From Mustelus asterias (taxonomy: Eukaryota), in assembly GCF_964213995.1 (NCBI RefSeq), contig NC_135815.1:33046001-33110000 (forward strand): a stretch of 64,000 nucleotides of DNA, read 5' to 3'. Positions 20,786-64,000 of this stretch are shown here, in pieces. Position 1 is the stretch's first letter; every line of letters begins with the position of its first letter. The notes under the pieces were generated by a model, which had not been told where the DNA came from, did no database searches, and was given only the letters and a program-made list of their open reading frames with translations. The position numbers and the translations under genes are program-made.

Positions 20786-20906
20786 ACAATGTGGGTGAAG
20801 GAAACATTAAACACAGGTTAGGATACAAATGATAGGATTCGCATTCTAATCAGTATTCTGCAACTTGATTTTGTCTGTTTGCACTGTTTGAGAGCACATT
20901 TCCACT

Positions 20907-20943
20907 CCATCTGACGAAGGAGCAGTGCTCTGAAAGCTTATGG
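20907..20943 (+). ncRNA. Minimal type-I hammerhead ribozyme motif in Penelope pseudo-LTR
   Basis: CCAT-CTGACGA-A-GGAGC-AGT-GCTCT-GAAA-GC-TT-ATGG: stem I CCAT/ATGG, intact core, stem II, palindromic AGCT in place of stem III. Confidence 0.7.
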
Positions 20944-22042
20944 TATTTGCTACCAAATAAACCTGTTGGACTTTAACCTGGTGTTGTGAGACTTCTTACC
21001 ATGTTCACCCCAGTCCAACACCGGCATCTCCACATCATTGAAAATCAAACCCAGTGACTAGCAGTTAGATTATCTTGAGAAAATGGATAATCACATAGCA
21101 CTTGGTCACTGTTTATCTTGGTGAGGGTTTTCAAGTATACAGTACTAACATGGGTTTCATTAGAAGCATGCAGTACTTCATCTTGATAACCTGATAATTA
21201 TTTGGAATACTTCATATCAAGTAGCCTTCTTCCAGATTATTTCATCCTTTTTCCTGAGTTCATTCTGATCTGTCAAGTTTTGCAATATGAAATGCAAGTC
21301 TTGTGATAACTATTTCTTTAGGTGTACATTCACAGATTTGTTCTTGATGTTCATGGAAGATTTCATAAACTAAGTAATGTTTAACTGCCTTCATGTGTCA
21401 AAAGGATAGTAACTATGATACTGTTCTCAGATTTTCTCCCCTTCAGGTATAAACCATCAGCATTTTACTTGCTAGATTCATAAATGATATCACAATAATA
21501 AACTGACTACACCCCTCTTTGCAGTGTAGAACAGCTACGACTCGAATCCCTCTTTTTGGCTCCAGTATGTGTGTGGCCTACAGTTAGTGGCTTTCTGCCC
21601 TACAGATCTTGGTAAAATCTACATAGACCAGTTCTGATAACTGATGCTGTCTTTCCTATCTCTTTTCGTAGATGTCAATGACTAATATGCGTATCCTACT
21701 AGTCTTTCTGCTACCCCTTTAAAAAAACATATATTAGACATCTAACAGCAGAATGACCATTTTGGTAGAAACATTGATAGTTATAACTACAGAAACACTG
21801 CCCTTACACAAAGTAGTTTCATTCCAAAGTACACCTTTAAAGGTAACAAATTCAAAATGAACTTTCACCTCAATTAGTAGTTTAAAAAAAAGACATCTCT
21901 TATTTCCACAAGATGCGTCCAAGATGACACTGACTTTATTGCAACATAATAGACATCTATGGATCTGAACCAAGCCTCAGAAGAAAGGTCATTTGAAAGA
22001 AAACATAAGTCTAGAAATCTAACAGCTGAAGAACAATTTGAA

Positions 22043-23009: not shown

Positions 23010-24138
23010 TTCATCTATATGCAGATCCACAAGAGATGAGTGAGATCCTAAATGAATATTTCTCATCAGTATTTACTGTTGAGAAAGGCATGGATGTTGG
23101 GGAACTTGGGGAAATAAATAGTGATGTCTTGAGGAGTGTACATATTACAGAGAAAGAGGTGCTGGAAGTTTTAAAGTGTATCAAAGTAGATAAATCTCCG
23201 GGACCTGGTGAAGTGTATCCCAGGATGCTGTGGGAGGCGAGGGAGGAAATTGTGGCTCCCCTAACAGAGATATTTGAATCATCGAAAGCTACAGGTGAGG
23301 TGCCTAAAGATCGGAAGGTGGCAAATGTTGTGCCTTTGTTTAAGAAGGGCTGCAGGGAAAAGCCTGGGAACTATAGGCCGGTGAGCCTGACATCTGTAGT
23401 GGGTACGTTGTTAGAGGCTATTCTGAGAGACCGGATCTACAGGCATTGAGAGAGGCACGGACTGATTTGGGACAGTCAGCATAGCTTTGTGAGTGGAAAA
23501 TCATGTCTCACGAATTTGAGTTTTTTGAAGGGGTAACCAAGAAGGTAGATCAGGGCAGTGCAGTCGACATTGTCTACATGGACATGAACCCAAGATCCCG
23601 GTTGAAGTCATCCTCATGAGTGCGGAACTTGGCTATCATGTCACGCTACTTGTAACCCCCATCATACTGCCTGGGTTTGCAAAATCCTACAAACTGTCCT
23701 GGCTTGAGACAATTCACACCTCTTTAACCAGTGATTATCCCTCTCTCCATGCACACTGTTTGTACCTGTAAAGACTCGCATTCCAACCATTCTTCACATT
23801 CCAATCTGTAATTATCTTGCAATTGTGTCTTTGCCGATATATGCCATGTTTGTGAACTAACCTGCACTGATCTGATGAAGGAGCAGCCCTCCAAAAGCTC
23901 GTGATTCCAAATAAACCTGTTGAACTTTAACCTGGTGTTGTGAAACTTCTTACTGTTTTCACTAGAAAGATGGAGGCTGAGGGGAGATGTGATAGAGGTC
24001 TACAAAATTATGAGAGGCATAGTCAGGATGGATAGTCTGAGGCTTTTTCCAAGGGTGGAAGTGTCAATTACAAGGGGGCACAGGTTCAAGGAGGGCCGAA
24101 GGGCCTGTTCCTGTGCTGTACTTTTCTTTGTTCTTTGA
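23010..24138 (+). mobile_element. CR1 fragment, internally deleted and interrupted by a Penelope-like element
   Basis: EILNEYFSSVFT..KVDKSPGPG..NYRPVSLTSVVG up to VYMD (~23583); resumes at LFSLER (~23953) through the GGGCCGAAGGGCCTGTTCCTGTGCTGTA tail. Confidence 0.85.
23581..23956 (+). mobile_element. Penelope-like 3' end with inverted 5' piece and a mutated hammerhead
   Basis: Minus 23581-23638 encodes IAKFRTHEDDFNRDLGFM; plus strand continues MSRYL*; pseudo-LTR has CTGATGAAGGAGCAGCCCTCCAAAAGCTC (GAAA changed to AAAA) and the AATAAACCTGTTGAACTTTAACCTGGTGTTG tail. Confidence 0.8.
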
Positions 24139-36639: not shown

Positions 36640-36840
36640 TTTGAGGACTTTCTTCTTAATCTGCCTCCTTACTCATGGAACTTGTTTTGCAAGATCTGAA
36701 TCTTACTTATTTTAAAATCATTGGCGCTGACATAAACTGCAACTTTTGCCAAATGTCTGTCTTTCTCCAAGAATTTCTGCACCAGTTCCATTGTGTTTCT
36801 TATGTTGGCACCAGGAAGACAACTCACCATTTGAGGTTCA
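36640..36840 (-). mobile_element. CR1 ORF1 (SGNH esterase-like) fragment
   Basis: MVSCLPGANIRNTMELVQKFL..VAVYVSANDF..ILQNKFHE resembles the CLPGA and VHVGTND motifs of CR1 ORF1. Confidence 0.6.
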
Positions 36841-37013
36841 CCAGCTTGGATATGATAGTAAAAGGCTGCCAGCTGAAATATGTGCATACCTTTGCTAGGT
36901 GAGGTAAAGTTATATCTGACCTTCACTTCCAGTGATATGGTTCGACAATGCACATATCACTGGAACTGGTGCAGAAATTTTTGGAGAAAGACAGACAATT
37001 GGCAAAAGTTGCA

Positions 37014-37227
37014 GTGATGGTGACAACTCATTCAAATGTCTGCTCCATTAACTTTCGATGGTACTATCTGTGCCTACCATGGTGGCCACAGGTAGCAGGG
37101 AATCAAGGTTCTATTTCAGAGAGGGAGTCTGAGAAACAGCTACCACATCCAAGGAAAGCAGCAGGTGCACAAATTACTGATTCGGGGAGATAATGATGTA
37201 AAATAACAATGCAGGACACTTTCGAGG
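37014..37227 (+). pseudogene. 18S rRNA pseudogene fragment (~210 nt from the 5' domain)
   Basis: AACTTTCGATGGTA..GTGCCTACCATGGTG..GGGAATCAAGGTTC..GAGAGGGAGTCTGAGAAACAGCTACCACATCCAAGGAAAGCAGCAGG..AAATTAC..AAATAACAAT..TTTCGAGG matches conserved eukaryotic SSU rRNA, with CpG decay. Confidence 0.92.
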
Positions 37228-40075: not shown

Positions 40076-40804
40076 GTAAGAGAGCCAATGATTAAAACAA
40101 GCTCCAAAACCTGACAAAGGATAAAATGTTCTTGCCAAATGCTTCCTGTAAATGTTTTTACTTAACTGCTAAGATGTGTCTATCAAGCAACAAATAGGGG
40201 ATAGTTATTACATATGTTTAATGATAAATGGCAAAATCCTTTTGCCATATAAACTTGTTGGACTTTAACCCTGTTGTTGTGAGACATCTTACTCTGCAAG
40301 CAGAGCTCACTGTGGGCAAAGCTATCATTTTCCATTCGGAGAATTCTTTCTGAAAGGTAGAAACATCAACATGAATGAAGGCAGCATTTTCTGTTTGTAT
40401 TTCAGATTTCCAGCATCTGCAGCATTTTGATTTTGTATTATTGATGTTTTGAATTCTGCCCTGCCACCCTCAAAATAACTAATGAACTCGACTCCTCCGA
40501 ATAATGTATGCATAAGGCCTTTTAGTCAGAAAATATTTCTGAGATTCAGCACAGATATTAAATGAACAAACAACTTAAGAGCAAAAGCAAGCTTTTAGTT
40601 CTGATGAGTTTATGGTGGCAGTCCACAAGTGAGCAGTCTAGAATTTACAAAGTTTGGCATGTTGATTTAAGTGTCTAGAGGGTTTCGATTGTTACCTCTA
40701 TATTACTTATTACATTCATTACATACAATCACAACTTAACCCGGATCAATATGGATTGGATTATGTTATACAAACTGCAATAATAGGTTCTGCATAATAG
40801 GAAT

Positions 40805-43570: not shown

Positions 43571-44763
43571 GAGGGTGATTTTCTGGCCTCGCCGCACCTG
43601 CGCAGATCGCACTAATCCAGGAAAATTGCGTGCAGGCCTAGAAATGGATTTCGTGCCTGACGTCAATTGGTTTGCAATTGTCCCGCAATTGTCTCAGTCT
43701 CTTGCTACTGGCGCAAACTGGATCTCACCCAGAAAAGGCGTGAAGCTGATTAGCATATTTAAAGTAGCATTTAATATGCTTAGCCCGTTCGACGCTGGAT
43801 TCTCTCAGTTCCCGGGATTTTCTGACCCTCAGGCACAACGTGAACCCATTGAGAATCACTGGAGACGAGGCGTGATGGCCACGCCGGTGACCTTGGAGGC
43901 CATTGAAGTCCCTGGGTGGTCGGTGATATGGCTGCGCAGTACCCATCTGGCAGTGCCAACCTGGCACACTGGCAGTGCCAGGTGGGCATTGCCATGGGGT
44001 ACTACCAGGGCCAGTGCCAAGGAAATAAGGCCTAAGTAGGCATGGGGCCTGAGTGGGGGGGGGGGGGGCATGTCTGGGGTTAAGGGGGACCCATTAGGAG
44101 GGCCCAATGCTCCAATGCCAGTGATCCTTGTTGGGGAGGGAGTGGGGAAACATGCTGCCAATGAGAGGGAGGTCCCAATGTCTGTGTGTGGGGGAGGGTG
44201 GGGGTCTTCTGGTGCACTGTGAGATCAAAATGGCACCCAATCACTTTGCAGCCGGGCTCACCAATGTGTTCAGGCCCCGTCATTCCCAGAACCGGCGCAC
44301 AACTCCGGTAGTGGCACGGTAGCACAGTGGTTAGCACTGCTGCTTCACAGCTCCAGGGACCTGGGTTCGATTCCCGGCTTGGGTCACTGTCTGTGTGGAG
44401 TTTGCACATTCTCCTCGTGTCTGCGTGGGTTTCCTCCGGGTGCTCCGGTTTCCTCCAACAGTCCAAAGATGTGCGGGTTAGGTTGATTGGCCATGCTAAA
44501 ATTGCCCCTTAGTGTCCTGGGATGCGTAGATTAGAGGGATTAGCAAGTGCGATATGGGGGTAGGGCCTGGGTGGGATTGTGGTCGGTGCAGACTCGATGG
44601 GCCGAATGGCCTCTTTCTGTACCGTAGGGTTTCTATGAACTCACCATTCTCCCAAAAAAACGACTAAGTGTGAGACAATTACGGTGTACAGACTGGTGCA
44701 GATCAGTCAGGTTTTCCCGCCCTTGTGACACTTAGTCATTTTTTGGGGGGGAAATTCCACCCA
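43571..44763. mobile_element. GC-rich non-autonomous TIR element with 3-bp TSD (AGA) and subterminal hairpin
   Basis: GAGGGTGATTTTC ... GAAATTCCACCCC between AGA repeats; hairpin CCCAAAAAAACGACTAAGTGT / ACACTTAGTCATTTTTTGGG at ~44651-44748. Confidence 0.7.
44312..44637 (+). mobile_element. Young HE1-type V-SINE
   Basis: CpG-retaining, near-identical to the reverse complement of 885-1225. Confidence 0.92.
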
Positions 44764-44968
44764 GAATGTTATGGGATCAAGTGCCACTTTACAGACATGA
44801 GCTTAAAATATAGGTTGACACTCCTAAGCAATACTGAGGAGTGCTGCATGATTAGAGTTGGCAACTTTCAGGTAAGTTATTAAACCTAGGTTGTGTCGAC
44901 CCATTCAAATGAATATTAAAGATGTGACGGTACTATTCAAAGATGTGCAGAGTAATTCTCCCTGATAT

Positions 44969-45209
44969 TAAAAACAGAAAATATTAAAAATACTTACCAG
45001 GTCTGGAAATATGTATAGAGAGAGAAATAGAGTTAAAGTCTCATGTGGATGACCATTCATCAGAAATCAGTCTGATAAAAGATCATTGACTTGAAATATG
45101 TACTCTGCTTCTCTCTCAACAGATGCTGCCAGACCTGCTGAGAATTTCCAGCATTTTCTGTCTTTGTATCAGATTTCCAGCATCTGTTTAGCTTTTGTGC
45201 TACTTTTCA
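44969..45209. mobile_element. Head-to-head Penelope pseudo-LTR palindrome with decayed hammerhead cores
   Basis: ..CAGGTCTGG..AGAGAGAG..GACCATTCATCAGAA | TCTGATAAAAGATCATTGACTTGAAA..CTCTCTC..CAGATGCTGCCAGACCTG; near-TSD CTGAT(A/G)T at 44962 and 45210. Confidence 0.7.
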
Positions 45210-45475
45210 CTGATGTCCTGGCTGATATCTAGCTTACAACCAGAGCCAGTAAAACCAAATTCCTGTCAGTATCTCAGACCTATTGGTAGGACCTCAGTGT
45301 GTGTGCAAGTTGACTAGCACATTTCTGCAAGTATTTAATTAGCTAGAAAGTGCTTTGGGTTGTCTGGAAGTTGAAAAGGGAGCTAAATAAATGCAAGTCT
45401 TTCATTCTGTGCTTCAAAATTGCTAATTAGATACAGTTTTGATTAAGCTTTTGGAACTAATTTTTATAAAAAACG

Positions 45476-45880
45476 TAAGAACACAAGAACTAGGAGCAGG
45501 AGTAGGCCATCTGGCCCCTCGAGCCTGCTCCGCCATTCAATAAAATCATGGCTGATCTTTTCGTGGACTCAGCTCCACTTACCATACCACTTACCGCTCA
45601 CCATAACCCTTAATTCCTTTACTGTTCAAAAATTTATCTGTCCTTGCCTTAAAAACATTCAATGAGGTAGCCTCAACTGCTTCACTGGGCAGGGAATTCC
45701 ATAGATTCACAACCCTTTATGTGAAGAAGTTCCTCCTCAACTCAGTCCTAAATCTGCTCTCCTTTATTTTCAGGCCATGCCCCGAGTTCTAGTTTCACCT
45801 GTCAATGGAAACAACTTCCCAGCTTCTATCTTATCTATTCCCTACATAATCTTATATGTTTCTATAAGATCCCCCTCATA
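45476..45880 (-). mobile_element. CR1 3' fragment
   Basis: AAGAACACAAGAACTAGGAGCAGGAGTAGGCCATCTGGCCC tail; CTTATATGTTTCTATAAGATCCCC. Confidence 0.85.
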
Positions 45881-46689
45881 TCTCTTATGACCTCCTAAAT
45901 AGGAACAATGGTAATGAGGGTAACATGATGCCTTCATGGAAGTTGGCGGGTGGGGAGATGTGGGGAGTGCGGGGGAAACAAGAAAAACTCTTCAACCAAA
46001 GTCAGTACCAACATTGTGTTTCTAAACATTCAAATCAGTTATAATGGGAAAATTTAATATGCCAATAAGTGTAGAAATATTTATAATATTAAACAGTTAT
46101 GGGGCAATTTATTGGAATACACTTATCCTTCAAGAGACCTGGCCATAAATCCTACACTTCAGTTGTACAAAGCTTCCTGAACTGAATGTTATTGTGTGAG
46201 ATAATGAGTTGCAGCAGTTTACCCACATGTTTACCCATTTCAGAGCTTGAACATTTATCCTTGGGAGCGATCATGGTGAGTCAGTGTTTGACTTTGAATT
46301 TGGAAAAAAATTTGGTGCAGTTACAGCTGTGTTGACATGCCATTATAACAGGAGGTTCAGATAATGGCAGAAACCAAGACAATGAGATGGTGTATTTATT
46401 ATCTTCTGGATTCAGGGAGATTGGCACCAAAGCAATCTAATTCTCAATACTCATTGAACTATACTGCTGCCTTGTTCTGGTTTCCTTCCTGGCCTTTTGG
46501 AGGTTGTTTCAGGGCAGAGCTGTCAAATCATATTGTGTCATAATTGCAAGCAGTGAACAAGTCGGGGAACTTCACATTTTCAATCTGTTAGTACAGTTGT
46601 TACATAGTAAAGGCATTGTTCCTAGAGCTTACATGTGCCAACAAAGAGCATTTTTAAGTTTCTTGCTGTGTGTGTCCAACCAGAACTAC

Positions 46690-48280
46690 TTCACAGAATT
46701 GGTACAGTGCAAAGGGAGGCCATTTGGCCCATAATGTCTGCACCTGCTCTCCGAATGAGCAACTTCCTAGTTCTATTGTCCAATCTTCTCCACGTAACCC
46801 TGCACATTCTCTCTTTTCAAATAACAGTCTAATTCCCTCTTGAGTGTTTCAATTGAACCTGCCACCACCATGCTCTCAGGCGGAGCATTCCAGACCCAAA
46901 CCATTCACTGTGAAAACATTTTCCCTCATATCACGATTGCTCCTTTTACTAATTACTTTGAATCTGTGCCCTCTCATCTCACTCATTTCACAAGTGGAAA
47001 CAGCTTCTCCCTATCTACTCTTTCCAGACCCCTCATGATTTTGAATACCTCGATCAAATCTCCTCTCAGCCTTCTTTTCTCCAAGGAAAACAGTCTCAAC
47101 TTCTCCAATCTATCTTCATAACTGAAGTTTCTCAGGAACCATTCTTGTGAATCTTTTCTGCACGATGTCTAATGCCTTCACATCCTTCCTGAAATGCAGC
47201 ACCCAGAACTGGACACAAGACTCCAGCTGAGGCTGAACAAATGGCTTATACAAGTTCAACATAACCTCCTTGCTCTTGTATTCTATGCCCCCATTAATAA
47301 AGCCCAGGATACTGTATACTTTATTAACCATTCTCTCCATCTATCCTGCCAGCTTTAATAATTTATGCACATATACATTCATGCCCTTCTGCTCCTGCAT
47401 CACCTTTGCTCACAAATCTGTCGTGTGGCACTGCACCAAATACCTTTAGCGAGTCTATGTACACCACATCAACAGCATTGCCCTCACCAGCCCTATTACC
47501 TCCTCAGAAAACTCCAGTGAGTTAGATAACCATGATTTTCCCTTAAGAAATCCATGCTGGCTTTCCTTAACTAACCTGCATTTGTCCATGTGACTATTAA
47601 CTTTGTATCAAATTATTGTTTCTCGAAGTTTCCCCATCATTAAACTGATTGGCCCATAGTTGCTGGGCGTATCCTGACAATCTTTTTGAACAAGTATGTA
47701 ACGTTTGCAATTCTCCAGTCCTCTGGCACTACCCCTGAGTCGAAGGAAGTCTGAAAGATTATGACCAATGCCGCCGCAATTTCCACACTCACTTGTGGTA
47801 GTATCCTTGGGTGCATCTCATCCGGCCCTGGTACCTTATTAACCTTAAGCACATTTAATCTATCCAATACCTCCACTTTTTCAATTTAAAGCTCTTCCAG
47901 TGGCGACACCGTGACACCATGGTTAGCACGACTGCCTCACTGTGCCAGGGACCTGGGTTTGATTCCCGACTTGGGTCACTGTCTGTGTGGAGTTTGCACA
48001 TTCTCCCCATGTCTGCGTGGGTCTCCTCCAGGTGCTTCAGTTTCCTCCCACATTCAAAGATGTGTGGGTTAGGTGTGTTGGCCACACTAAATTGCCCCTT
48101 AGTGTCAGGGGGACTAATTAGGGGTAAGTGCATGGGGTTATGGGGATAAGGTCTGGGTGGGAGTGTGGTCAGTGTAGACTCAATGGGCTGAATGGTCTCC
48201 TTCTGCACTGTAGGATTCTATGATTTTAGTGTTTGAAATACTTCCGCTTTTACCATGGCCTGGGTCACATCTTCTTCCAT
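46690..48280 (-). mobile_element. Degraded CR1 ORF2 fragment, interrupted by an HE1 SINE (+, ~47901-48227)
   Basis: LKVNKVPGPDEMHPRIL..VPEDWRIANVT and LESCVQFW..VQKRFTRMVP. Confidence 0.85.
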
Positions 48281-48722
48281 CTTCAAACATGGACTTGATT
48301 ATCCTGAACCAAGTGAGAAGACCAATCCAATCCCAGTGACATATTTATCCCTCAAGGCTGTCTGATCATTCACTAGGTGCCTAGATTATCAAGGGTCATC
48401 TGGCTCAGATATCAAAATTCGAGATTCCATTCATCCATCAACAGATATGTCTCATGTTGGAATTAACAGAATTTCAGAGCAGTATTTACCTAAGGAGGAA
48501 GTTTGTGAGTTGACTATTAGACAAATGGCAATGAGGTGACGATGTGAGTTACTCTTAAAAGCAACTCTTGTTTCCCATTTGCAGCAAATATAATTTGCAA
48601 AATACATTGGCAGAGCACTTTCTATTAATAAACCAAGTTGCTTACTTGAACAAAGACTTTCCTGTGTGTGTGAATACCACTGATCCGGGTAACTGGCTCA
48701 CTGTTTTCTACCTGTACTTTAG

Positions 48723-48962
48723 GTGGCTGTGATGGCTGGTATCCAATATTTGCATACATCCCTGGATAGCATTGCAAATCCTGAAGATCCTGAGTGCGAG
48801 AGTGAGGGTTGGTTATTGGAGAAAAGCGTGAAGGAAACATTTAAATCCCTGCTGGAAAGCATTAAAGAGCTGGGTAAGTTCAATCAGGTAGCTACAGATG
48901 AAGAGGGGAAAACTGAAGAGGGAAAAGTTGAAGAGGGCAAGACTGTCGCCACAGTCAGCTGA
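48723..48962 (+). CDS. PRPH2: Peripherin-2 coding exon 3, 240 nt to stop
   Basis: Acceptor TTTTCTACCTGTACTTTAG; VAVMAGIQYLHTSLDSIANPEDPECESEGWLLEKSVKETF..ELGKFNQV; total CDS 1068 nt = 355 aa. Confidence 0.95.
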   Translation: MAVMAGIQYLHTSLDSIANPEDPECESEGWLLEKSVKETFKSLLESIKELGKFNQVATDEEGKTEEGKVEEGKTVATVS

Positions 48963-49942
48963 GGAGACTGCAAAAACCACTGGGGGTGGTGGGTGGGTAG
49001 GGGGAGAAACAATTTGGGACTCAGAAGGAAATGAAAATGAAAGAAATGTACAATACAAAACCAGATAAATAATTCCCTTTATTGTATAATATACAACGCA
49101 TGTACCCAAAGAAGGATTTTATTCTCCTGTATTTTGTATTTGTACTCCATCATACGATGTAAGCCATCTACCACCAACCATATTCTGTAATTCACCTATT
49201 TACACCTGGATTGTCAATTTATATTATGTTAAATTGATTTTGACAATTTGTGCACTATTCAATCAGCAGGAATCTCTTCCATGCTTTGTACTATATAAAG
49301 TGGTAAATATAACCAACGTGTCTGACTCTGGAAATATGGATTGTGTGACAACGGTACTTATGTAAAACACTCCTGCCATCTTTAATGTAGCTTAAATGCT
49401 ATGTGAAGTTATATAGTATATACGCTGTTACGACATAGGGTTCAATATTAAAAGCATCTTCCAAGAAAAAGGACATTTTTCATTAAGTGAAGATTTCCAT
49501 TCATATTTTACGTACTTCAAAACTTCACCTAGGAATCCAAAACAAGATCAAATAAATGTGACAAATCAACTTACAGATAGAACTAGAATGTTCTCTCTTA
49601 CAAGCAGGGCTGTGATTAAAGGCAAATAACATGGATGGGAAATCAAGGATGAAGGTTGGTTCAGATTTTAGAAAACACACATGACTTACAAACTTAGTCA
49701 ATATGGTATTCCCCAATACTTCCTAAATCAGCTTCATAAACATGAGGAAATCCCTGTCTGACCTGTAAAGTCCCCCAACATTTGTTTGCAGCGATTCAGT
49801 TGGGTAGGAGATGCAGTTAAAAATTAACAAACACTAAGTGTACAAACGGAGTTATTTTTCAAGATTTTGTACAGCAATTACTTATCATATCCAATTGAAA
49901 CTAAGCCGTGGCATGGTTTGTTCATTAAATGTGATTTTAAAA

Positions 49943-51585: not shown

Positions 51586-53509
51586 TCCACCACGGAGTAT
51601 TTTTCCCTGCAGAAACCCTTATCCATTCTTTTGTTGCTTTATAGCTTAACTTTCTTCACCGGTGTTCAAAGCTCATTAATACACAAATTCAAACTTGAGA
51701 GTATTATTAGAATTTTGGGCTGTGTGACAATCTCTGCTTCCCTCTCCAAATTCCATCAGTTTTTGTTTCCTAAAGCACTGAATTGAAAATCCTAGTATGG
51801 ATTTATCAATGCCTTTGTGGTCTTGCCCCACGTTACTTCTACAAAGTCTTCCAGCCTGTGCTTTAAAGACATTGGATTTCAAATTCAGTGCATCAGGAAA
51901 CCACTGGAAATCATCTCAACAGCAATGATTGTCAAGCAGACTTAGTATTGGGTTCCTCAGCAGTTTGGATGCTGCTGAGGAAAGTTGAGCCGTGAGGTAA
52001 CAGAAATATTGATAACAGATTCAGCAGGAGGAAATACTCAATCTCAGTGATGGACAGACTTATCCTCAATTGAAAGATTGGGAGAGCCCAGGACATGAAT
52101 GTATTGATTACAATTGATGCAACTCCTCAATAAATCTAGCAATAGACAGAGTGGCCATTGTGAACATTCCTCCTCACTTCTTCAGATACTTCTAACAAGG
52201 AATGCATTCTTCTGACAAGGCTCCAGTGCAAAGCTTGATTTTGTTAGTTATAAACATTTATCTTAATTTCCTGGATGTGAGTGAAAGGTTTTAGTATTGC
52301 TTTTATGCTTTGCTCAGTTTCTGTTTCATGATGTTGAATCCTCAAATGAATATTGACAACAGTGAAGTGTTGTATTTTATTAAAATGTTAATTTGGAGGC
52401 AGTGACATATTTTGAAAGGATTGACAAGCTCAGTGTTAAAACACAATCCTTCTCAGAAAATAATAAACATACACAAATTGTAATACCTCTTGAATGGAAA
52501 ATACTTCTCTAACAGTTACTGCTGCACATGACTACAAATTCATATTTTGTTAAAGACTTGCACTCAAGGTCCATAAGCAGTGGTTGGCTCTAATGAGTTA
52601 GATGAACTTAAGGCTTTCAGGAGAGACTTGTTCCTGGCCCTTCGACTCTCAAACCTTTTCTCTGAACTTAAATGGCAATTCTCATAATGTTTGTGTTCGA
52701 CAAGTGCTTTCCCATGACATAACACAAGAGGGGTCTGTATGTGCAAGGGTATGTATGCATAATTGAATAAGGGAGTATGCATGGAAGGCAAGGTGGCTGC
52801 AAATTTGTATTTGAACACTGGCACCGAGAGTGAAGATAAAGACAGACAAACTAATGTAGCAAGGGATTGTGTTGTGAAAACAATTAAGATGTTGAACACA
52901 TTTTTTTTTAATGCAGTGATTGCTAGTGCATGAACAAACTTGAGCTACATACCAACAATCAAATAAACTTTAGAATAAACAGGTATAAGAAGTTAAATGC
53001 CAAGAGGCCCTACTATGGATATTAATCACGCATCTGGCTTCACTAGCACAGTTGATGACATTTTATGGACTTTCCCAGTTTGGCTCAGAGTGAAGATCAA
53101 CTCCCACAGGTGAGTTCTGACTGCGAACTGAGGGAAAGTTTTCATTCTAAAATGGAGGCAGAACTGTAAGAAAACAATACGAGAAATTCAGAAAATGTAT
53201 CGAGGAAAAGAGAACAGATCAGTTGATTCTTGATTTTCCAAATGTAATTCATTTTAAAACTGGGAGAATGGAAAATAATCCATATAATTTGCAAGCTGTA
53301 AATACTCAGTATTGAAAATTCCTTGTCCTTCTCACTGGCTAGAATAATCTGCACTATCAATTTTTCTAACTAGCCCTTTGTCAACATAAAATAGGTGATT
53401 TTGGGGTGTTTTGTGTTTTTCTTAAAAAGTAGAGCTGTTTTTAACATTTATTCTGGCCCAATTTCATAAAATATTGTGAGCAGTGAATATCTTTAAACAC
53501 CAGAAAGCG

Positions 53510-53707
53510 GGCACAGTAAGAAGTCCAACAGGTTTATTTGGTAGCATGAGCTTTTGGAACACTGCTCCTTCATCAGGTGAGTCTCACCTGATGAAGGAGC
53601 AGCGCTCTGAAAGCTTGTGCTACCAAATAAACCTGTTGGACTTTAACCTGGTGTTGTAAGACTTCTTACTGTGGACACCCCAGTCCAACGCTGGCATCTC
53701 CACACCA
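53510..53707. mobile_element. ~200-bp non-coding Penelope pseudo-LTR palindrome carrying a hammerhead core on each strand
   Basis: AAGTCCAACAGGTTTATTTGGTAGCA..TGCTCCTTCATCAGGTGAG-T-CTCACCTGATGAAGGAGCA..TGCTACCAAATAAACCTGTTGGACTT, centred on 53582. Confidence 0.85.
53585..53619 (+). ncRNA. Minimal type-I hammerhead ribozyme motif
   Basis: CAC-CTGATGA-A-GGAGC-AGC-GCTCT-GAAA-GC-TT-GTG: stem I CAC/GTG, intact core, palindromic AGCT. Confidence 0.7.
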
Positions 53708-55384
53708 GAGAGAGGGGAGGTGGTGGTGTTTGGAGCGGAGGGGGGCAGGGGGAGAGGGGGGCAGGGGGAGGGGGGGGGCGGGCACAACACCCAGGAACGT
53801 TACAAAACCAATCAGTGATCTGTTTGTATGTTTTTACTTCCATCTGGGATCCTGGTAATATCTTGTCAATGATTTATGTAGCCAGGCTTATTCACGGCAA
53901 TATAAAAGCAACAAACTCCAACAGGTTTCCTTTCAGGGAAGGGCGATTAACTCATACTGCAATGCTTTCAGTGGGAGAATAAAATATCAGTGTCATCTAC
54001 CTTTGCAACTTCTGGCCAACAAATTGAGTAAAGGCACAATCGTAACAGTTACTGAAATTACACTTTTTCATGTATACCAAAGCCCGAGATGGAATTGTGC
54101 AGTTTTTGCGAGATTACAATGGGATCTCTCCACAGTTGGTCCTTTCTTCAACGACCAATACTTTCAATCAGTAACTGGTTAATAGATTACTGATATACAT
54201 TCAGTATCCTTCATGTACTTGCTTAACTCAGCAAAAAAAAGTAGCTTTTCTTCCCACTTCTCTGTATCTCTGTTGTGAAAACTGGCCAGAGACTGATGTA
54301 TAGAAGTACTGTGCTAACAAAAAGGGCTGTGGTTATTTCATCTCACAAGGAGAACACCTATGAAAACAAAAGGGTTGAATGGGGAAGTTTTGCAAGTTCT
54401 CAAGCTCTTCCCTCCTTTACGTTGCTTTTTTAATAAAAATGTTACTTCAATTTTCCCTCTTTTTAAGAGAACTCATACCAAGGAACTCCATAGGAGGAAT
54501 AGCCCTGCTATACTCAGTTTGAATGGCTTTTCTTGAGTGAGAGAGAACCTGATTCTGAGTAGGTGATTTCTATCATTGACACTATCACAGCTAAACTTTA
54601 CCCTATCCTCATCAGCATCCACATATACTTTCAGTAGAGGTTCCCAGAGAAAGACCATATGAGAACAGCATGATTAGTTTTTGATTTGTAGCTCGAGAAG
54701 GATAGCCGCAGAATTCTTGTACTGTTGCAGTCGAGAAGCTAAACTCAGGGCAGCCCAGAAATCAAAACGAAAGTTATTTTAACATGAAAGACTCGACCCA
54801 TACCATATATTTTACACATTGGAATGACTGTTTATGATTACATTTGACCAGATAAATCAAACTACATTTGTACTAAATACCAAAATGGATACATTTGTAG
54901 TGCCTCTTGTTGTCGAGTGTGCAAGTCTATGTATCCAATTGAGAAAACTATTTGGAAAGGACAAAGTTAATACCTCCAAATGCTCAGAACATGGATTCTA
55001 TAATGCAATCAATAAATACTAGCGAAAGTTAATCCACAGGATGGAGTAAGTGATGATTTTTTAACAAGTGATACAATCTCTCTAGTTACAAGATGCTCTT
55101 ATCGAAAAAAAACACTGATGCATATTACAAACTAATTTGAAGCAATCTCCAAGTTACTAAAAATATGCAGCTAAGTTATTTTATTAATGCCACAGAATTT
55201 TCGTTTACTTTCTGTACCTTACTTGTAATGTCTTCAAATGTTACTTCAAGGTGGAGTAAATAGGATTAAAGGCTAATAAGATAATCATCTTAATTTCAAG
55301 ATATCATTAAAAACTGCAGCTGCAAGCTATCCAGGAATTACAGAAATACAGTAAGCTTACAATTGACAGATCTGGGCCACTGAA

Positions 55385-55790
55385 GGACAAGGGACTTCAG
55401 TTATGTGGAGCAACTAGAGGTAATGAGGTTGTTCTCCTCAGAGCAGGGAAGGTTAAAGGAAGATCTAATTGGAGGCACTCAAGATTGAGGGATTTTCCGA
55501 TGAGTAAATAAGGGGAAACTGTTTCTACTGGTAGGATGGCAACCAGAAAATACTGATTTAGAAGTAGCAATGAGGAGAATGTTTTTTAATGCAATGAGTT
55601 AATGATCTGGAATGCACTTATAAAAGAGAAAGCAGATTCAACAGCAACTTTCAAAACGTAATTGGAAATGTACTTTAAAAGGAAAAAGTTACAGCGCAAT
55701 GGGTAAAAAATACAGGGGCTATACTAATTGAATATCACATTCAAAGACCTGACATAGGCTGGTTGCACAAATAGTCTCTTTCTGTCCTGT
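55385..55790 (+). mobile_element. Degraded CR1 3' fragment
   Basis: TTCAGTTATGTGGAG..GTTCTCCTCAGAGCAGGGAAGGTTAAAGGAAGATCTAAT..TCTGGAATGCACT. Confidence 0.65.
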
Positions 55791-57567
55791 GAATAAAGCT
55801 TAGAATAAGATTTTTTTTGCACAGGTCGCAGATGAGAAATGTCTCCGCACCATAACAGTCCTTCAAAAGGAAGTTCTCGCTTTCTCTAAAATCAATCAGA
55901 AAATGGTTTCTGATTAAATAGCTACTAAAGGATGAGGGTCTTCAGTTATGTGGAGCAACAAAAAAGTGCTACAGTAAGTTTGGGGAGCTGCTTTTAAGGA
56001 TAAGTGTAAAGTTCTCTCAATGACCTTGGAGATAAATGCACACCCTATTCAAAAAACTAAATTTGGTGCCTTTGCACATGTGTGTGTTCCCTTTGGCTTC
56101 AGTGACCCTAGAAAGGAGCCAGTGTTGCAGCTCTTCACAGTTATCCAGCATGACTATCAGCTGAGGGCACGATCAGTCTCAGGTTTTATGCCTCCCAAAA
56201 CCAACACTGCCCAAATCAATGGAAATGTGCCTCTATACTGGTCACCACCTCAGATAAAAGCAAGGGAATATGAATTGGATGTAGGGGTGTGGGAATTTTG
56301 AAAAATAGCTACAGGTTTTGTTTCAATGAACTGTAGATTATACATTTTTGTTGATACAGTAATACGTGAAACTATTAGAAGTTGAATGAACTCCCCATTC
56401 TTAAGAAAAATACTGAATGGTACCACAATTTAGAGATCACAATCAGAAAATATATTTGAAGCAATAGCTCCTCAAGAGCATACATAGAAAATGTTTTCAA
56501 TGATTTGCTATTTTGCAGGCATTTTCAGGCTTTCCTTCATTTGAATGAATCCAACAGTTTAGCTTAAGGAACAATAGATTTTGCAAGAAAATGACTTGGG
56601 GGATTCAGCTTACGGTTAATGGGTCAATCATTCAAAATGTGCCAAATAATTTCCTGAAAGTAATTTTTAGCTTTGACTGCATCCATTTCCCTCAACGTTG
56701 AGCTTCAGAAACATCCAATCATGTTTCTAGTGTTTCCTTGCCATTAAACAAACGTGCTTAAATTCCTTTCCCCCTCATGGAATCATAAAATCTATTAATT
56801 ATAATTCACTCCCTCACCTCCATTTGATGTCCTTAACTGCAGTAAAACTTCTACTTCCCTCCACTCTGATTGTGCACTATATTGTTGCTCCCTCAAGTCC
56901 AACACATGCACGCTAGAGTATATGCAATGCACAACTGATTTAGCCATCCATCATCAGATCTAGCAGATCACATCAGGTCTCACTATGTCAAAACTGTCCA
57001 TTTCTCCAGCACCTTGGAATGCAAAAATAACTCAACTTCTCCACTGCAAATATTTCCTCTCCTCAGCTTATTCTACTCTCCTTTCCAACAAATGTGAAGA
57101 GCTTATGGATTCCTGAATCACCAAGATTAAAACAATCAATTCAATAGCTGCTGCAGCTTCTCCTCCCTCCCCCACCCCCCGCCCCAGCCCCAAAGCAAAA
57201 GCTCCCCAGATGTTATCCTCTTGCTTCACTATTTCTCTGTCTCAGTCTGTCTAAACTCATCGCGTTCCTGAGACTCCGGTACCTGCTACATTGGTACCAT
57301 TCCCACTTCCTTTTTTGACCTCTGCTAGCTGACATTGTAAATGACTCCTAATCCTTGGGTACTATTCTCACCCCTTAAAGTAGCATCAATACCTACCCCC
57401 TCAAAAACTATACCTTTGATCCTTTTCCTCTCCAAAATACTTTAACACAATTGTTTCTCAAATCTGTAGCCATCCTTTCCACAAGCTGTCCGGTTGGGTT
57501 TGTCTCCATCCCACAGCACTGGAATAATTCTAACTGAAGTAGTTTAGTAATACAGAACCAGAACTTG

Positions 57568-58619
57568 AGTATTGCTGAAAAAAGAAACATGTCAAAGGTT
57601 TTGGTCTTGCACTCATCAGGAAGCTTCACAAGAACCCCAGTATAAGGGGAAAACAGCAATTTATACTGTATAAGAGAATGTTAATTGTTTGGCAGATGGG
57701 TTGATTGGGAGAGGCATTGCCATGGAGAATGCACCAGTTGATGGTGACTGATAGACAACTGCCAAGCATTGTTTGAAATTTAAATATGGCAACTTGACCC
57801 TGATTGGTCAAGGTGCTGACCTGGAGAATAAATCAGCAAATGGCCGTCACTTATTTTGTTTAGCTGCAACAAGGGTAACGTGTACACATATTTGTTCTGC
57901 CTGCAGAGAACAGGGCACTATATATGTAGCTTCCAGTACACGCAAATGTACCACACTGAGCCTGACTGACAACGCGAAATTGGTTGTCAGCACAATTCTT
58001 AACACAATTCAACAAAATATTTCCAACCATAGAATCACATTTAATGTTGGACACTGTTTTGCAAGCATGGGCTGGTTGGGTGCAATCTGTACCTTGCCTG
58101 TTGTGGCAGCAGCTGGGACATGCTGATCGATTGGGACATACAGTCTACATACCTAGCGTCACACTGGCACTCGAATTAATATACCACAATACTCATCTGT
58201 GTGAGGGGTAATATGTCTTTTTGGCTTGACGGCAGCATCCTGTTAGTGGTGAATACCAATCGTGTTGCTACTGCACAGTAGCAGCGCAAAACAGCTAGTT
58301 ACACCTGGTTGTTAAATTGAGAAACTTTGCCCTTCCAGGATAATCCGAGGTAGACTGGGCACTTTCCAGGCCAAAAGTGATGGCTTTAGGCCCGTTCATG
58401 ATTGTGAGATATACAGCACTAAATGATTTGTTCAGGGTAGCCATTCCCTGCAGAATGTTTTGGCAATGCCTCTATCTATCAGACTCCACATGCCAATCAC
58501 TCAGCATTCTTTTCTCATACAGTATAAATTGTTGTTTTCCCTTGTACTGGTATTCTTACAATGTGTCCTAATGAGATTAAGACCAAAAGCTTTGACATGT
58601 TTCTTATTTCAGCAATACT
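57568..58619 (-). mobile_element. Penelope-like element (Poseidon type) GIY-YIG remnant between inverted pseudo-LTRs, inserted in an old L2-like LINE
   Basis: Terminal IRs AGTATTGCTGAAA..AGAAACATGTCAAA..TTGGTCTT..CTCAT and its reverse complement; minus frame FTTNRMLPSSQKDILPLTQMSIVVY*FECQCDARYV..KCDSMVG..DNQFRVVSQA. Confidence 0.8.
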
Positions 58620-59134
58620 AGTCGAACTAAAGCTACAAACAGAATTTGCACGTCTTGGCTTCCCTCCATGCTTTGACAACATCCTCCTTCAATGCTTCTG
58701 TTGTGTACCTCAATGGGGCTATCTTTCATTGGTTTCACAATTACATCATGTTTAGTTGTAGCAGTTAATTTCCAGTAATGGCTTCGCTTTCTATCTCTCA
58801 AGCCTCCATGGATCTATCTTTGGCATTTCTCACCTACATGCCATCCCTCATTAACATCCAAAAAGATGGGGTTAACTTTCACATGTATACACACACACAA
58901 AGCTTTAACTCTCCACCACCTTTGTCAACTCAACTGTCTCAGTGTTGTCACTCGGCTTGTTCAGACTTGGACAAGCTACAATTTCCTCCAGTAATATATT
59001 GGGAAGACCAAAGATTTTGTCCTCAGCCATAGTCAAATATTGAACCAGATATTCAGAATCTTAGCATACTATTCAACCTAGAGTTGAGGTTCCAACCCCA
59101 TATGCTCATCATAATGACCTTTTTTATCCAGGAA

Positions 59135-59460
59135 AGGCAGTGGCATAGCGGTATTGTCGTTGGACTGGTAATCCAGAGACCCAGGGTAATGCTTTGGTCC
59201 CCACAGCAGATGGTGAAATTTGAATTCAATAAAAATCTGGAATTAAAAGTCTAATGATGACCATGAAACCATTGTCAAATGTTGTAAAATCCGATCTGAT
59301 TCACTGATATTTTTTAGGGAAGTAAATCTGCCATCCTTACCTGGTCTGGCCTACATGCGACTCCAGACCAACAGTAATGTGGTTGACTCTTAAAGTCCCG
59401 TCAGGAATGGATAATAAATGCTGGCCCAGCCAGCAATGCCCACTTCCAATGAACAAATAA
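59135..59460 (+). mobile_element. Second tRNA-like SINE family
   Basis: GGCAGTGGCATAGCGGTATTGTC..GGACTGGTAATCCAGAGACC head; ATCCTTACCTGGTCTGGCCTACATG; tail AATAAATGCTGGCCCAGCCAGCAATGCCCAC. Confidence 0.65.
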
Positions 59461-60759
59461 AAAACATCACTTGGTGTCATCCATGCTTTTGCCACCTCCA
59501 GAGAAATCCAGTGGTGCTTGGCATTGTGGCCATCTGGCAGCATCACTGCGGCCTGGATAATTTTGTCAGAAAATGCATTAATAACAGGAAAGAAATACAT
59601 TTGACTATGGGAAGAAACACAACTTCTCTGACTGAAAATTGACATTATTTCCAAGACTTTCCTTGCACAGTGACAAACTCCAAACGCTCCAAAATTCAAA
59701 CAATCACTCTTGTTACCGAAGGCACTGAAGTTCGCCATGCATTCTGTTTTGGATGACATGCTTCTGTTAAAATATGTCGGCCTTGCAGAAGATGCAGTCC
59801 AGATTCATCAGCATACCAGCATTAAAGGATTAAAATATCACATCATGTGTAAATTAGGCTTGCATTCCCTCGAGGTTGGAAAGTCTGGGGTAAGCTCATC
59901 AAGGATTTAAAATTATCAAAGGATTCAATGTGGTAGATAGAGAAATTATTTCTTTTGGCAAGGAATTCTGGAACAAGGAAAGAATCTTAAAATTAGAGCG
60001 AGGCCGTTTAAGAATAAAATCCCAAAGTTCTGTTGCACATAAAGTCAAGTGGGAATTTGGGTCAGAATTGTCAGGTAAAGATATCAAATGACATGGAACA
60101 AAGGCAGATAAATGGAGCCATGATACAGATCAGCCATAAAGTAATGAAATATCTGGACAGAGTTTGAGTTAAATTAACTGCTTCCGCTCCAAAAACTGCG
60201 AGTACAAAGTCATGAGCACACAACGACAGGGGATCCAATTTTTACCACGCCATTTGCAAACTGTGGACAAGTGCTGTGTTGATCAGATGTCATGTAATTA
60301 GATGTCACGTGACGAACTCTCCAAGAGTAGGTCAAACAAGAGCTGGCAAACCTGCCATGTAATGGAAAGGAAATCAGGATAACCTACCAACAGGTTTTCT
60401 AAATGTCCCTGTGGCAAACAAACCAGTCTCTCCTCAGCTACTCCCCTGAAAAAAATGCTAAGCTATGACCTGCATGTTTAAGCCCTCAGAAATGGGCAAT
60501 AAATGCTATCTTACCACAAAAGCAATATCTGGTTTGAATTGCTATGGCCAACCAATTAGACATGGGACTTCACAATCAGGATTAATTCTTGCACAATTTC
60601 CACTTGTTTGTTTTTCACTGACCAGCCTAAATAATGCAGCGAAATTTAATTTCAGCAGAATAATCTAAAAGAAAGCCTATATAGATTAAAAATATCTCCA
60701 GAAAGATCAAAAATCTTATGTGACAAATACTCATTTGGCATGACATACATTATGAAGGA

Positions 60760-61940
60760 TGAACAAAAAACGTTCAACACCAAAAGCATTTATTTTTAAT
60801 CTTGAGCGGTTTTTTTACATATAGTACATAGTACCAATTATACATGAATTCAACATATATTAACAGCCCATTTATTACAAGTATTCTCCCAAATACCGAA
60901 AGTATTCCTGTTTTATAAACATTTCTACAATGAACGCAAATACATGCTAAATGGTTTCATGAGAGGAGATTGCACGATACAAGAGAATGTGGTTAATTTA
61001 AGGTATCAACAGGACAAGTAAAAGGAAAAGAAGTGGGTGTGCTCTCCATTTCAGCAATATGTACATTAGTTCAAAACTAAAGATTATGAGTTTATTCGGC
61101 CTTGTCAGGCTTTTCATTTATATCCATAAACTGGGTCAGCCAACAGTGGGAAAACAGAACAGCCTCACTTTCACAACAAACTGTAGTTAACTGAAAAGAA
61201 AATGATCTGGAAGACCCAGCGTAATCTAATGTTATATTCAAGTTGCAGCACCTGTGAATTTTCATGTTTATTCAAGCATTAAAAAAATTCTTCGACACTT
61301 ATGTAAAATAGAAAATAAATCCCCCAAAACGGACCTTCCATTTTAAATGGGTGCAGTACTGTACATGGGGTTGTATCTACTACTTGTACCAATACACAAA
61401 TCTAGTTTATTTACTTCATATACCAGTAACATGAGCTCTGTTCAACATCAAATTCTTTTGTAGCCTGCTAATCTTTACATGGAAATAATATTAAATTGTG
61501 TTTGCTAATCTCAACAAAACATGGTCAAAGCAACACTGGGGTACAAGCAGAGTGAAAAATCTTTTCCAACAAGAGAATATATTGTAAGTATTATTAATTG
61601 TAACACAATAAGGTTCAGGTGTTGATGGAACAGTAATGTTGCTAGAGAATGAAATGGCATAAATATTCTCAAGCTTAACCTAACTTAGTTGAAAAAAAAC
61701 GAATGGTGTGTTAGATTTATATGGTACATCTCCAACATGAGTTTAACATGTTAACAGACAGTTTCATTCCAAGCATTGTAAAATATTCCAATTTAGTCAA
61801 TTAATGCATAAAATATTTGACTGATAAGCAATGCGCGTTTCAAGTTATTACCCATATTGGAGGACAAACAAAAATGGCTACGCTCTAAAATCACCGTAGA
61901 AGCCAAAATGTTGCAGTGCTACTTGCAATAAAGCAAATTA
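60760..61940 (-). other. Candidate 3'UTR end of a minus-strand gene (possibly UBR2 by synteny)
   Basis: AATAAA on minus (TTTATT 60789-60794) followed on minus by GT/T-rich TGTTGAACGTTTTTTGTT; repeat-free AU-rich tract with many TGTA motifs; no coding exon seen. Confidence 0.4.
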
Positions 61941-62504
61941 CTGGAGGATCAGGAGTTGACTCTCATTCTCACCAACAGAGACCATTAAAAAAGTGAACTA
62001 GAGATGTCCTCATGCTCATTTCCAACCATGAGGACTTGAGGCTCAAGACAATGCAGCAAAAGAGTGGTTTTGAGTTATAGGTAAAGACTTTGCTTTTCAA
62101 GACCAGAAGAAGTTAACTGAGAGGGAATATTGAATAATTGGTATTGAAAAGATAACTCTAGAATACTACTTCAAAATAAAGCATGACAATTGGACTTCGG
62201 GCATATGCTCAGACTGATAAGAAGCAAATTTGTTGTCAGGAAGTCCGTAAGGAGCAAATACCAAAATTGAATGGATTACTGGTTAGAGGATGCAAAAATA
62301 TTGAATTCATTTGAGAAACATTTGGACGCTGTGATGTAAGAACAGTAGGATCTTTCTGGAGGCTGAATGGCTTTCTTCATCTGTATCTATCATCTGAGAT
62401 GAACATAATCAGGATGAAAGGGAACTGGAACTAGTATTGTAACTTGAAATTAAGTGACAATAGAAATAAATAAACATTCCCTCATCAGACATGTTGGAAA
62501 GTTA

Positions 62505-62727
62505 ATAAAGGCAGAAAATTTTGGAAAAACTCAGCAGGTCTGGGAGCATCGGTGGAGAGAGAAAACAGTTAATGTTTCATGTCCTTGTAACGCTTCTTCA
62601 GAGCGCAGAAAGAGTCGTCTGGACTCGAAACGATAACTCCACAAATGCTGTCAAATCTGCTGAGTCTTTTCAGCATTTTGTTATTAGTTCAGATTTCCAG
62701 CATCCATAGTAATTTGCTTTGATTATT
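62505..62727. mobile_element. Head-to-head Penelope pseudo-LTR palindrome with 11-bp TSD
   Basis: ..CTCAGCAGGTCTGGGAGCATC..AGTTAATGTTTC..CTTCTTCAGAG | ..AGAGTCGTCTGGACTCGAAACGATAACT..ATGCTG..CTGCTGAG; TTGGAAAGTTA at 62494-62504 and 62728-62738. Confidence 0.85.
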
Positions 62728-63032
62728 TTGGAAAGTTATCTTCCTTAAGGATTAGCTTTTCTAAGTTTTGGCAAATCTATCACTGAAGTTAGTTAAAATT
62801 CAGTAAAATATATATTTTTTTTATTCACTAGATCCAACTGTTAAATTATGCTCAGTGTTACATGTCCAGAATTGTCTTTTTACCTTATTTAATTCTGGAC
62901 AGTTATAAACAGAATTGTTAAAAATCATTCACAATATGTTTTGTGCTGAAAAATGCCATCATGCCATGTAGATCAACAGTTCCCTTTTAAATAAATCAGT
63001 ATTAACACTTGCTCAGTAGGACAGAACTTCAA

Positions 63033-63996
63033 TATTGCCAAAAAAAGACATGCTGCCAAAGCCCTGCACTCATCAGAACAGACAAGAATGCCAAAGTTCA
63101 AAGGGCACAACAAATTATACTATGAGAAAAGGTACTATTTGTTTGGCAAGTTGTCTCTGATTAGTTAAGGCATCACCATAGAGAATGCACCAGGGAACTC
63201 TGTGTCCCATGCATTTGTTTAATTTAAGATAGGTGTAATGTCCAGACATATTATTTTTGCCTCCAGAGCAGAGGTCTCTCTGCACTTGAATATATATAGC
63301 TTAGAGCAGGAGCCATATATCAAACTCAACAGATAATTTTAAATTGGTAGTCAATGTAATTCTGCGCATACTCGGGATTGTTCAGCAAGTGCTGTCCAAT
63401 TGTGTAATCACATCTAACGTTAGACATGATGTTCTGAGTTTTGCAATCATGGGCTAGCACTTTCTACCTCCCACCCAAATCTCAGTGCCGATCTAATGCC
63501 AAGTATGGAAGCCATTAATCCCAACAGCTGGCGAATCATATCAAAAAGCATGTCTCTTTGACTGTTCAGAACATGCAGAGTACTGACCATACTCAACCAG
63601 CCCATTCTTGCAAAATGCAGAACATGTGATTACATGACCTAATGGCACTTGTTGAACAAGCCTGGGTGTGCTCAGAATTACGTTAAAAAACAATTTAATA
63701 TGAACAGTTGGGATCACAATGTGACTCATTTATGCTTAGTAGAAGCTACATATATTCATATGCATGTGTAGGCATTTTACTTTTTTTTGAATTAAAATTA
63801 AGCGCATGGGACAATAATTTCCTGGTGCACTCTCCAAGGCAATGCCTCTATCAATCAGCATCAACTTACCAACCAAACAGCACCCTTTTTTCATGTAGTA
63901 TAAATTGTTACTCCCTTTGAAATTAGGCATTGTTGCAACTAACCTGATGAGTACAAGATGAAAACCTTCAACAGCATGTCTCTTTTCTCAGCAATA
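63033..63996 (-). mobile_element. Second Poseidon-type Penelope-like remnant between inverted pseudo-LTRs
   Basis: TATTGC..AAAAGACATGCTG..CACTCATCAG at left and CTGATGAGTACAAGATGAAAACCTTCAACAGCATGTCTCTTTT..GCAATA at right; minus frame VRCDYTIGQHLLNNPEYAQNYIDYQFKII. Confidence 0.8.
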
Positions 63997-64000
63997 CAAT

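Follow-up and report, generated by a model that had tools for sequence, protein, structure and literature searches.

The palindrome at 53510-53707 is best read as two head-to-head, 5'-truncated pLTR (3'-end) stubs of a high-copy, Neptune-type Penelope-like retrotransposon (PLE), likely deposited by one old insertion and likely decaying without a host function, a reading to which we assign a probability of roughly 0.8. An insertion of PLE origin accounts for all features of the palindrome, both AATAAA hexamers included. The retrotransposon nature of the repeated unit was missed in the preliminary description of this locus. Hereinafter, the window refers to the whole stretch of DNA that was analysed (64 kb). 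In addition, 4 of 21 sequencing runs were compared with the region 52000-55500: X1 (organism A), X3 (organism B), X13 (organism E), and X20 (organism G, guessed to be RNA). The features of the palindrome are as follows.

53497..53504 (+): likely left copy of the target-site duplication (TSD), 8 bp; 15 bp with 2 mismatches if extended to 53511
53509..53582 (-): left arm, a tail-less 5'-truncated pLTR stub including the centre base; outer end at 53512, possibly 53509, beyond a 21-nt deletion (between 53521 and 53520) with a pair of GACTT words as microhomology
53533..53538 (-): left-arm AATAAA, element-borne
53545..53579 (-): left-arm decayed minimal hammerhead; two CpG-site lesions, A in place of G12 (53555) and a mismatched stem I
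53583..53673 (+): right arm, a 5'-truncated pLTR stub reaching the family's common tail-less 3' end (53670-53673)
53585..53619 (+): type I minimal hammerhead lacking helix III; 3-bp stem I, CUGAUGA+A, 5-bp stem II with G-U as its closing pair, GAAAGCUU; cleavage predicted at 53616/53617
53626..53631 (+): right-arm AATAAA, element-borne; shared with copies 20908 and 23872, replaced by TATAAA in copy 40245
53674..53704 (+): tail of about 31 nt, right arm only; stem-loop with 53670-53673; paralogs continue with TCATG
53702..53709 (+): likely right copy of the TSD; first 3 nt overlap the end of the tail

The inverted repeat consisted of two 61-nt arms (53521-53581 and 53583-53643) complementary at 55 of 61 positions, with CTGATGA boxes facing outwards (53588-53594 on the plus strand, 53576-53570 on the minus strand) and one AATAAA per arm (53626-53631 on plus, 53538-53533 on minus), in agreement with the arms of about 60 bp that had been described. 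The GAAA box was intact on the plus strand (53609-53612) and read AAAA on the minus strand; the change sits at a CpG site, as expected from the CpG decay proposed earlier. Folding of 53505-53710 as RNA yielded -123.5 kcal/mol (z -13.2), and none of 200 shuffled sequences was equally stable. On a plus-strand transcript, the hairpin comprised 61 bp, with 55 Watson-Crick pairs, 4 G-U pairs, and 2 mismatches. The right arm extended to 53704. A single base (53582) lies between the arms, as noted before, where it was taken for a 1-nt spacer; it is A on the minus strand, and an A also precedes CTCACC in the loose-end consensuses of paralogs in all four runs, so the base is probably the element's own and the arms appear to be fused directly.

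The palindrome was bordered by an 8-bp direct repeat, ACACCAGA (53497-53504 and 53702-53709), which had been pointed out as a possible TSD and plausibly is one; an 8-mer was shared by 0.33% of random pairs of 20-nt flanks drawn from the window. The first 3 nt of the right copy double as the last 3 nt of the element tail, and, allowing 2 mismatches, the repeat may alternatively span 15 nt. None of the four runs showed an empty site, all of them carrying the left arm, so the TSD and its length stay putative. A G-rich tract (53710-53786), at which contigs of other runs break, adjoins the insertion on the right and terminates in a 9-nt word that is also present at 53507-53515; the true duplication may therefore exceed 8 bp, or the tract may have expanded.

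The hammerhead-type character of the motifs was borne out for the right arm, which satisfied the minimal hammerhead (min-HHR) descriptor given in Fig. S7 of PMC4209133; the left arm failed it. Two matches to this descriptor were found in the window (53588 and 20911), both within this PLE family, and none in 40 first-order Markov controls. The plus-strand core had been called intact, which holds for its boxes; the closing pair G10.1-C11.1 is now G-U, through decay, and U occupies position 17. On the left arm the residue lost, G12, is the one described in PMC6155905 as the general base of the hammerhead. At Rfam gathering scores no hammerhead was detected in the window, and the only match was a fragment of SSU rRNA, a degenerate piece of 18S at 36783-37161 with a good match only in its last ~130 nt. 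A miRNA precursor was also considered and rejected, since all 20 Rfam matches listed on the hairpin were below threshold (best 44.6 bits vs. a gathering score of 230).

Three sister copies with 85-89% identity were found elsewhere in the window (20908-21037, 23872-23956, and 40245-40296), and a 23-nt family motif had four matches in the window against 0.00 expected. Their features are given below.

20908..21037 (+): sister copy, tailed; its hammerhead satisfies the min-HHR descriptor
23577..23956 (both strands): sister copy linking the family to its ORF; last GIY-YIG codons inverted on minus (23580-23639), MSRYL-stop on plus (23638-23655), then 3' leader, hammerhead, and tail-less end
40245..40296 (+): short tail-less sister copy in PRPH2 intron 2; its start lies some 6 nt downstream of where the cut is predicted

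The copy at 40245-40296 lies on the sense strand about 170 bp into the intron, and its AATAAA has become TATAAA. Between 23577 and 23655, the second copy shows an L1-style 5' inversion, in which the inverted ORF segment is the one just upstream of the start of the plus-strand piece, with an overlap of a few bases; this type of inversion junction differs from the mirror-image palindrome at 53510-53707. An open LINE frame of 748 aa (18571-20817, minus strand), containing an endonuclease fragment and a reverse transcriptase (RT), ends about 90 bp from copy 20908.

Contigs matching 52000-55500 numbered 49,310 in X1, 35,609 in X3, 93,921 in X13, and 2,985 in X20; in X1, the best-matching DNA run, nearly all of them fell on the element. 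Summed depth in X1 was 5.8-8.2 million on the element vs. 23-47 in most flank bins, and in the three genome-sized runs (X1, X3, X13) it reached millions on the element vs. 2-47 in most flank bins, sums that do not represent true copy number. Given this depth and four loci within 64 kb, the family is very abundant. An exact scan with the 23-nt motif returned no loci in viral, metagenome, or prokaryotic genome contigs and no literature match. No published description of the shark family was found by title or abstract, with Repbase and Dfam outside the search; presumably the family is already catalogued there. The architecture of the locus is already in print.

The assignment to PLEs rests on the sister copy that retains coding sequence. 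Copy 23872 runs upstream to the end of an ORF, MSRYL-stop (23638-23655), beside the inverted piece 23580-23639. A HMMER search with the ORF-end peptide returned a single protein, P0122 (E 2.1e-9); a word-index protein search with the same peptide returned no match. With P0122 as the query, 29 longer relatives were retrieved, many of them from sharks and two with an RT domain. The C-termini of P0123 (Mustelus) and P0130 (Heptranchias) were identical at 17 of 20 residues to the inverted piece 23580-23639, and read-through C-termini of Scyliorhinus P0129 (E 3.9e-7) and P0124 (E 0.001) matched the plus-strand continuation 23623-23728. P0130 carries an RVT_1 domain, and both P0130 and P0138 contain DKG, a CX4CxxC linker, and a C-terminal GLN; their C-terminal nuclease reads VYLIRC/Y[IV]G (VYLIRC/YIG in P0130). 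A full-length element of the exact subfamily was not recovered; the link to the ORF consists of one sister copy and a 20-residue match.

Measured against endonuclease-bearing (EN+) PLEs, a pLTR following an ORF with RT plus a GIY-YIG nuclease at its C-terminus was found through the sister copy 23577-23956 and its protein relatives (P0123, P0129, P0130, P0138), not within the palindrome itself. The palindrome in turn shows a hammerhead in the pLTR, a tail at one end, which is optional in this group, and an adjacent, inverted, head-to-head copy that is 5'-truncated. According to PMC8557442, Neptune and Nematis share a layout with a CX2-5CxxC linker, a C-terminal GIY-YIG, and a DKG motif; the linker preceding a C-terminal GIY-YIG, together with DKG, was present in P0130 and P0138. 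By eye, the shark proteins were closest to Neptune1_Nv in Fig. S2, which tentatively points to Neptune. PLE-type sequences occur across vertebrates, according to PMC4350176 and a retrozyme preprint (bioRxiv 10.64898/2026.07.22.740005). Older remnants of PLE ORFs (post-RT, GIY-YIG) were also detected by tblastn at 10736-11828 and 26950-27331 (best E 4.8e-11). A second, unrelated repeat family occupies 57559-58619 and 63022-63997, including the inverted pairs 57568-57722/58461-58619 and 63065-63413/63624-63955; it was matched neither by Neptune proteins nor by Pfam, and we take its translations to resemble a Poseidon-type GIY-YIG end.

Paralog 3' ends in X1 fell at 53670 (355 records), 53672 (445), 53673 (478), and at or just past 53704 (327), that is, in two classes 31-34 nt apart. 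Paralogs ending at 53704 were followed by TCATG, which likely holds the ORF start codon, and part of the 53673 group continued into tail sequence. Both classes are represented among the five arms in the window, of which two are tailed and three tail-less. The tail forms a stem-loop (53670-53704; -13.7 kcal/mol, z -3.0), and the diverged copy 20995-21040 does not fold.

Centre-spanning contigs from other loci, with 7-16 differences, were listed in all four runs. A unique junction would have spoken against the function proposed in the preliminary description, and the centre is not unique; its recurrence points to the replication mechanism of the element, not to host function. A centre shorter by 2 nt was found in 38 (X1), 26 (X3), 32 (X13), and 0 (X20) contigs. 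Among the 15 of 306 joints listed, nine link 53544-53546 to 53618-53631, which places their centres just downstream of the predicted cut. Such joints are a lead only, as their listing may be favoured by a subfamily insertion at that spot (seen in copy 20908). These variable centres are better fitted by junctions formed during insertion than by one palindromic master. Loose 5' ends also piled up at 53583, but they were not taken to mark a defined RNA start, as the reference has no family sequence farther upstream.

Many loci with a nearly identical centre would also be produced by a palindromic, non-autonomous element (MITE-like or retrozyme-like) spreading as a single unit, and retrozymes are described as derivatives of PLE pLTRs (bioRxiv 10.64898/2026.07.22.740005). 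We consider such a unit improbable. Besides the shifted, asymmetric, and 2-nt-shorter centres, the arms are unequal with a tail on one side only, and all three sister copies in the window are single arms. Further, a tandem head-to-tail array of complete hammerhead units, the defining trait of non-LTR retrozymes, was absent; the palindrome holds two inverted units, one of them broken.

Insertion of two truncated stubs may instead have proceeded by twin priming, to which we give about an even chance. The element protein would introduce one nick into each target strand, about 8 bp apart, and reverse transcription would be primed from both nicks within the RNA leader, the tail site giving rise to the right arm and the tail-less site to the left arm. 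Both cDNAs would run off the 5' end of the RNA just upstream of the hammerhead and would then be joined end to end, resulting in a spacer-less palindrome flanked by a TSD. In vitro, the PAc protein of Anolis cuts and extends both target strands, and it is predicted to be a dimer (PMC11167929).

Within the same PLE origin, one cDNA or antisense template could alternatively have folded back, primed itself, and copied itself as far as the base of the tail stem-loop. For head-to-head junctions, self-priming on an antisense template is the route preferred by Arkhipova et al. (2013; PMC3846280). The left arm does stop at the foot of the tail stem-loop, and the joints listed include asymmetric junctions with one arm starting at 53623-53648. 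However, no more than one base is left unpaired at the centre, and a loop of 0-1 nt is below the minimum for a fold-back hairpin. Tail-less ends are common in single, non-inverted copies (two of the three sister copies in the window), so that fold-back is unnecessary to explain them, and the priming of both strands by PAc in vitro (PMC11167929) also speaks against it. We regard fold-back as a credible but rather unlikely route, and the small remainder goes to routes other than these two.

Shark genomes may hold thousands of mini-palindromes whose centres preserve, as fossils, where the copied RNAs had their 5' ends, with a main class just upstream of the hammerhead (uncut leader) and a minor class a few bases downstream of the predicted cut. 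We offer this tentatively and think it more doubtful than probable. The start of copy 40245 likewise lies just downstream of the predicted cut. If true, this would argue from genomic data for germ-line cleavage by vertebrate minimal hammerheads and for simultaneous priming on both strands by PLEs, both of which are open questions in PLE biology.

The preliminary description had interpreted the palindrome as a potential ribozyme/antisense switch or bidirectional terminator between the 3' ends of two probably convergent genes. The descriptor match of the right arm (two window matches vs. none in 40 controls) and the presence of AATAAA on both strands are compatible with that proposal, and hairpin and ribozyme folds are, as stated there, mutually exclusive. 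Yet the hairpin was favoured over the hammerhead (HHR) fold by 49.1 kcal/mol, and the probability of the HHR fold was ~1e-35 in full context and only ~0.01 for the isolated 44-nt motif; these predictions leave out tertiary contacts and proteins, and the margin is large. As the arms are head-to-head, the antisense arm is transcribed first on either strand, and in folds of plus-strand prefixes the stem closed while the right arm was emerging. A switch needs two reachable states, and with the ribozyme fold out of reach the proposal fails.

Other features expected of an active hammerhead were also lacking. The left copy has no conserved core with G12, and neither helix III nor a same-strand partner was found, each strand carrying one sense motif. 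A monomeric min-HHR of this helix-III-less type is reported in PMC4209133 not to cleave, and the Anolis HHR is described in PMC11167929 as requiring the element's protein. Accompanying the folding results, these observations leave the switch or terminator with hardly any probability; in any read-through transcript, the ribozyme is predicted to be locked away within the 61-bp hairpin.

Of the supposed pair of convergent genes, only the upstream one was found.

48723..48962 (+): last coding exon of PRPH2, the upstream neighbour; stop about 4.55 kb before the element

Exon 1 of PRPH2 (peripherin-2) was 92%, 90%, and 89% identical to the Heterodontus, Stegostoma, and Hypanus proteins, respectively, which identifies the host as a cartilaginous fish and likely a shark. 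TBCC, a single-frame gene (28555-29625, plus strand), was located upstream of PRPH2. Presumably, UBR2 would be the convergent neighbour from vertebrate synteny; C-terminal motifs gave no convincing match beyond 44000-49000. No convergent gene or exon was found in the 10.3 kb downstream, and none of 85 minus-strand segments of at least 33 aa (53700-64000) had a Pfam match, a weak test that misses short exons and also missed PLE ORF remnants. Pfam searches of 39 ORFs gave four matches, all below the cutoff.

An insertion into a long PRPH2 3' UTR might have been co-opted, supplying a poly(A) signal (53626) or an ADAR/dsRNA hairpin of use to the host. PRPH2 is encoded on the plus strand and ends 4.55 kb upstream of the element, the right-arm AATAAA is followed by GU-rich sequence, and the left arm is retained in all four runs. 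In addition, an X20 contig spans 52000-53634 across the centre at ~94% identity; it is unstranded and not joined to the PRPH2 coding sequence. The stretch 52000-53634 is unique and non-coding, lies in a deep X20 contig, and is possibly a long PRPH2 3' UTR. A step in X20 depth (1136 upstream; 58.7 and 35.8 downstream) was rejected as a 3' end, as contig depth cannot place one.

Several observations weigh against co-option, which we judge unlikely. The X20 contig may end where it does because the palindrome and the G-rich tract disturb assembly; DNA contigs break there too. Between the PRPH2 stop and the element, the plus strand has about 10-12 other AATAAA/ATTAAA hexamers, two of them as a pair (52962 and 52974), and the poly(A) signal of the right arm is buried in the hairpin stem. 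The differences between the arms, moreover, are CpG decay without compensation. As for the dsRNA source suggested earlier, a passive hairpin within a long transcript or UTR is possible, given the X20 contig that bridges the centre; if the 3' UTR of PRPH2, a photoreceptor gene, does include this copy, a 61-bp dsRNA hairpin would be located there.

Decay of the two stubs was evident from the arms themselves. All six differences were transitions, five of them within three CpG sites (P 6e-6), and no compensatory changes were found; the differences are thus mostly CpG-type decay. At non-CpG positions, one difference in 55 was observed vs. 2.5-3.5 expected from the between-species divergence of the flanks, which leans to conservation or gene conversion without being significant (P 0.13-0.29). 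Contigs carrying the unique left flank entered the left arm in organism B (to 53539), organism E (to 53542), and organism G (to 53634), with 1.9-6.4% divergence. The left arm is therefore at the same site in three other organisms, and the insertion predates their splits.

The insertion architecture has counterparts among EN+ PLEs. An inverted adjacent pLTR, a head-to-head palindromic junction, a 31-bp tail on one side, and a TSD of 8-10 bp are described in PMC3846280, and the same architecture is given by Craig et al. (2021; PMC8557442). The shark palindrome shares with the insertions in these accounts the inverted truncated pLTR, the 30-40-nt tail at one end, the 8-10-bp TSD, and the microhomology deletions. 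It differs in that no ORF lies between the repeats, the insert is only ~200 bp, and the junction is located 5-6 nt upstream of the hammerhead core.

With the min-HHRs described in PMC4209133, the shark motif shares CUGANGA+N, a 5-bp stem II, GAAA-GC-UH, a 3-bp stem I, and the lack of helix III, and the turtle entry in Fig. S3 of that paper has similar flanks with AAUAAA just downstream, as in the shark. No sharks were found among the legible names of that figure. Opposite-strand min-HHR pairs are reported there at distances of 100-700 bp, whereas the shark cores are 11 nt apart, one without G12 and the other with G10.1-U11.1.

A further close counterpart is PAc, which belongs to Poseidon and comes from Anolis carolinensis (Frangieh et al., 2024; PMC11167929). 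In both systems the pLTR bears a hammerhead and the 3' ends fall into two classes at a stem-loop, about 30 nt from each other; the PAc tail is described as the 30-40 nt between two RT start sites at that stem-loop. They differ in clade, the shark proteins carrying a CX2-5CxxC linker that Poseidon is described as lacking, and in the position of the ends: in PAc, stem II contains the start of the ORF and reverse transcription begins 111-118 nt inside it, whereas the shark tail would end just before the likely ATG. Non-LTR retrozymes (bioRxiv 10.64898/2026.07.22.740005) resemble the palindrome in being non-coding, PLE-derived, and equipped with a type I hammerhead, but their head-to-tail tandems permit cleavage as dimers, whereas the palindrome is head-to-head with one sense motif per strand.

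The locus itself is thus ordinary, one of very many decayed Penelope-like insertions. The formation of inverted repeats by PLEs is presented as unsettled in PMC3846280 and PMC8557442, and RNA reads ending at the hammerhead cut are reported as not found for Anolis in the account of PMC11167929. Short, TSD-flanked palindromes in the shark genome are of interest in this respect, as counts of their junctions could address both the inverted repeats of PLEs and cleavage by their hammerheads.
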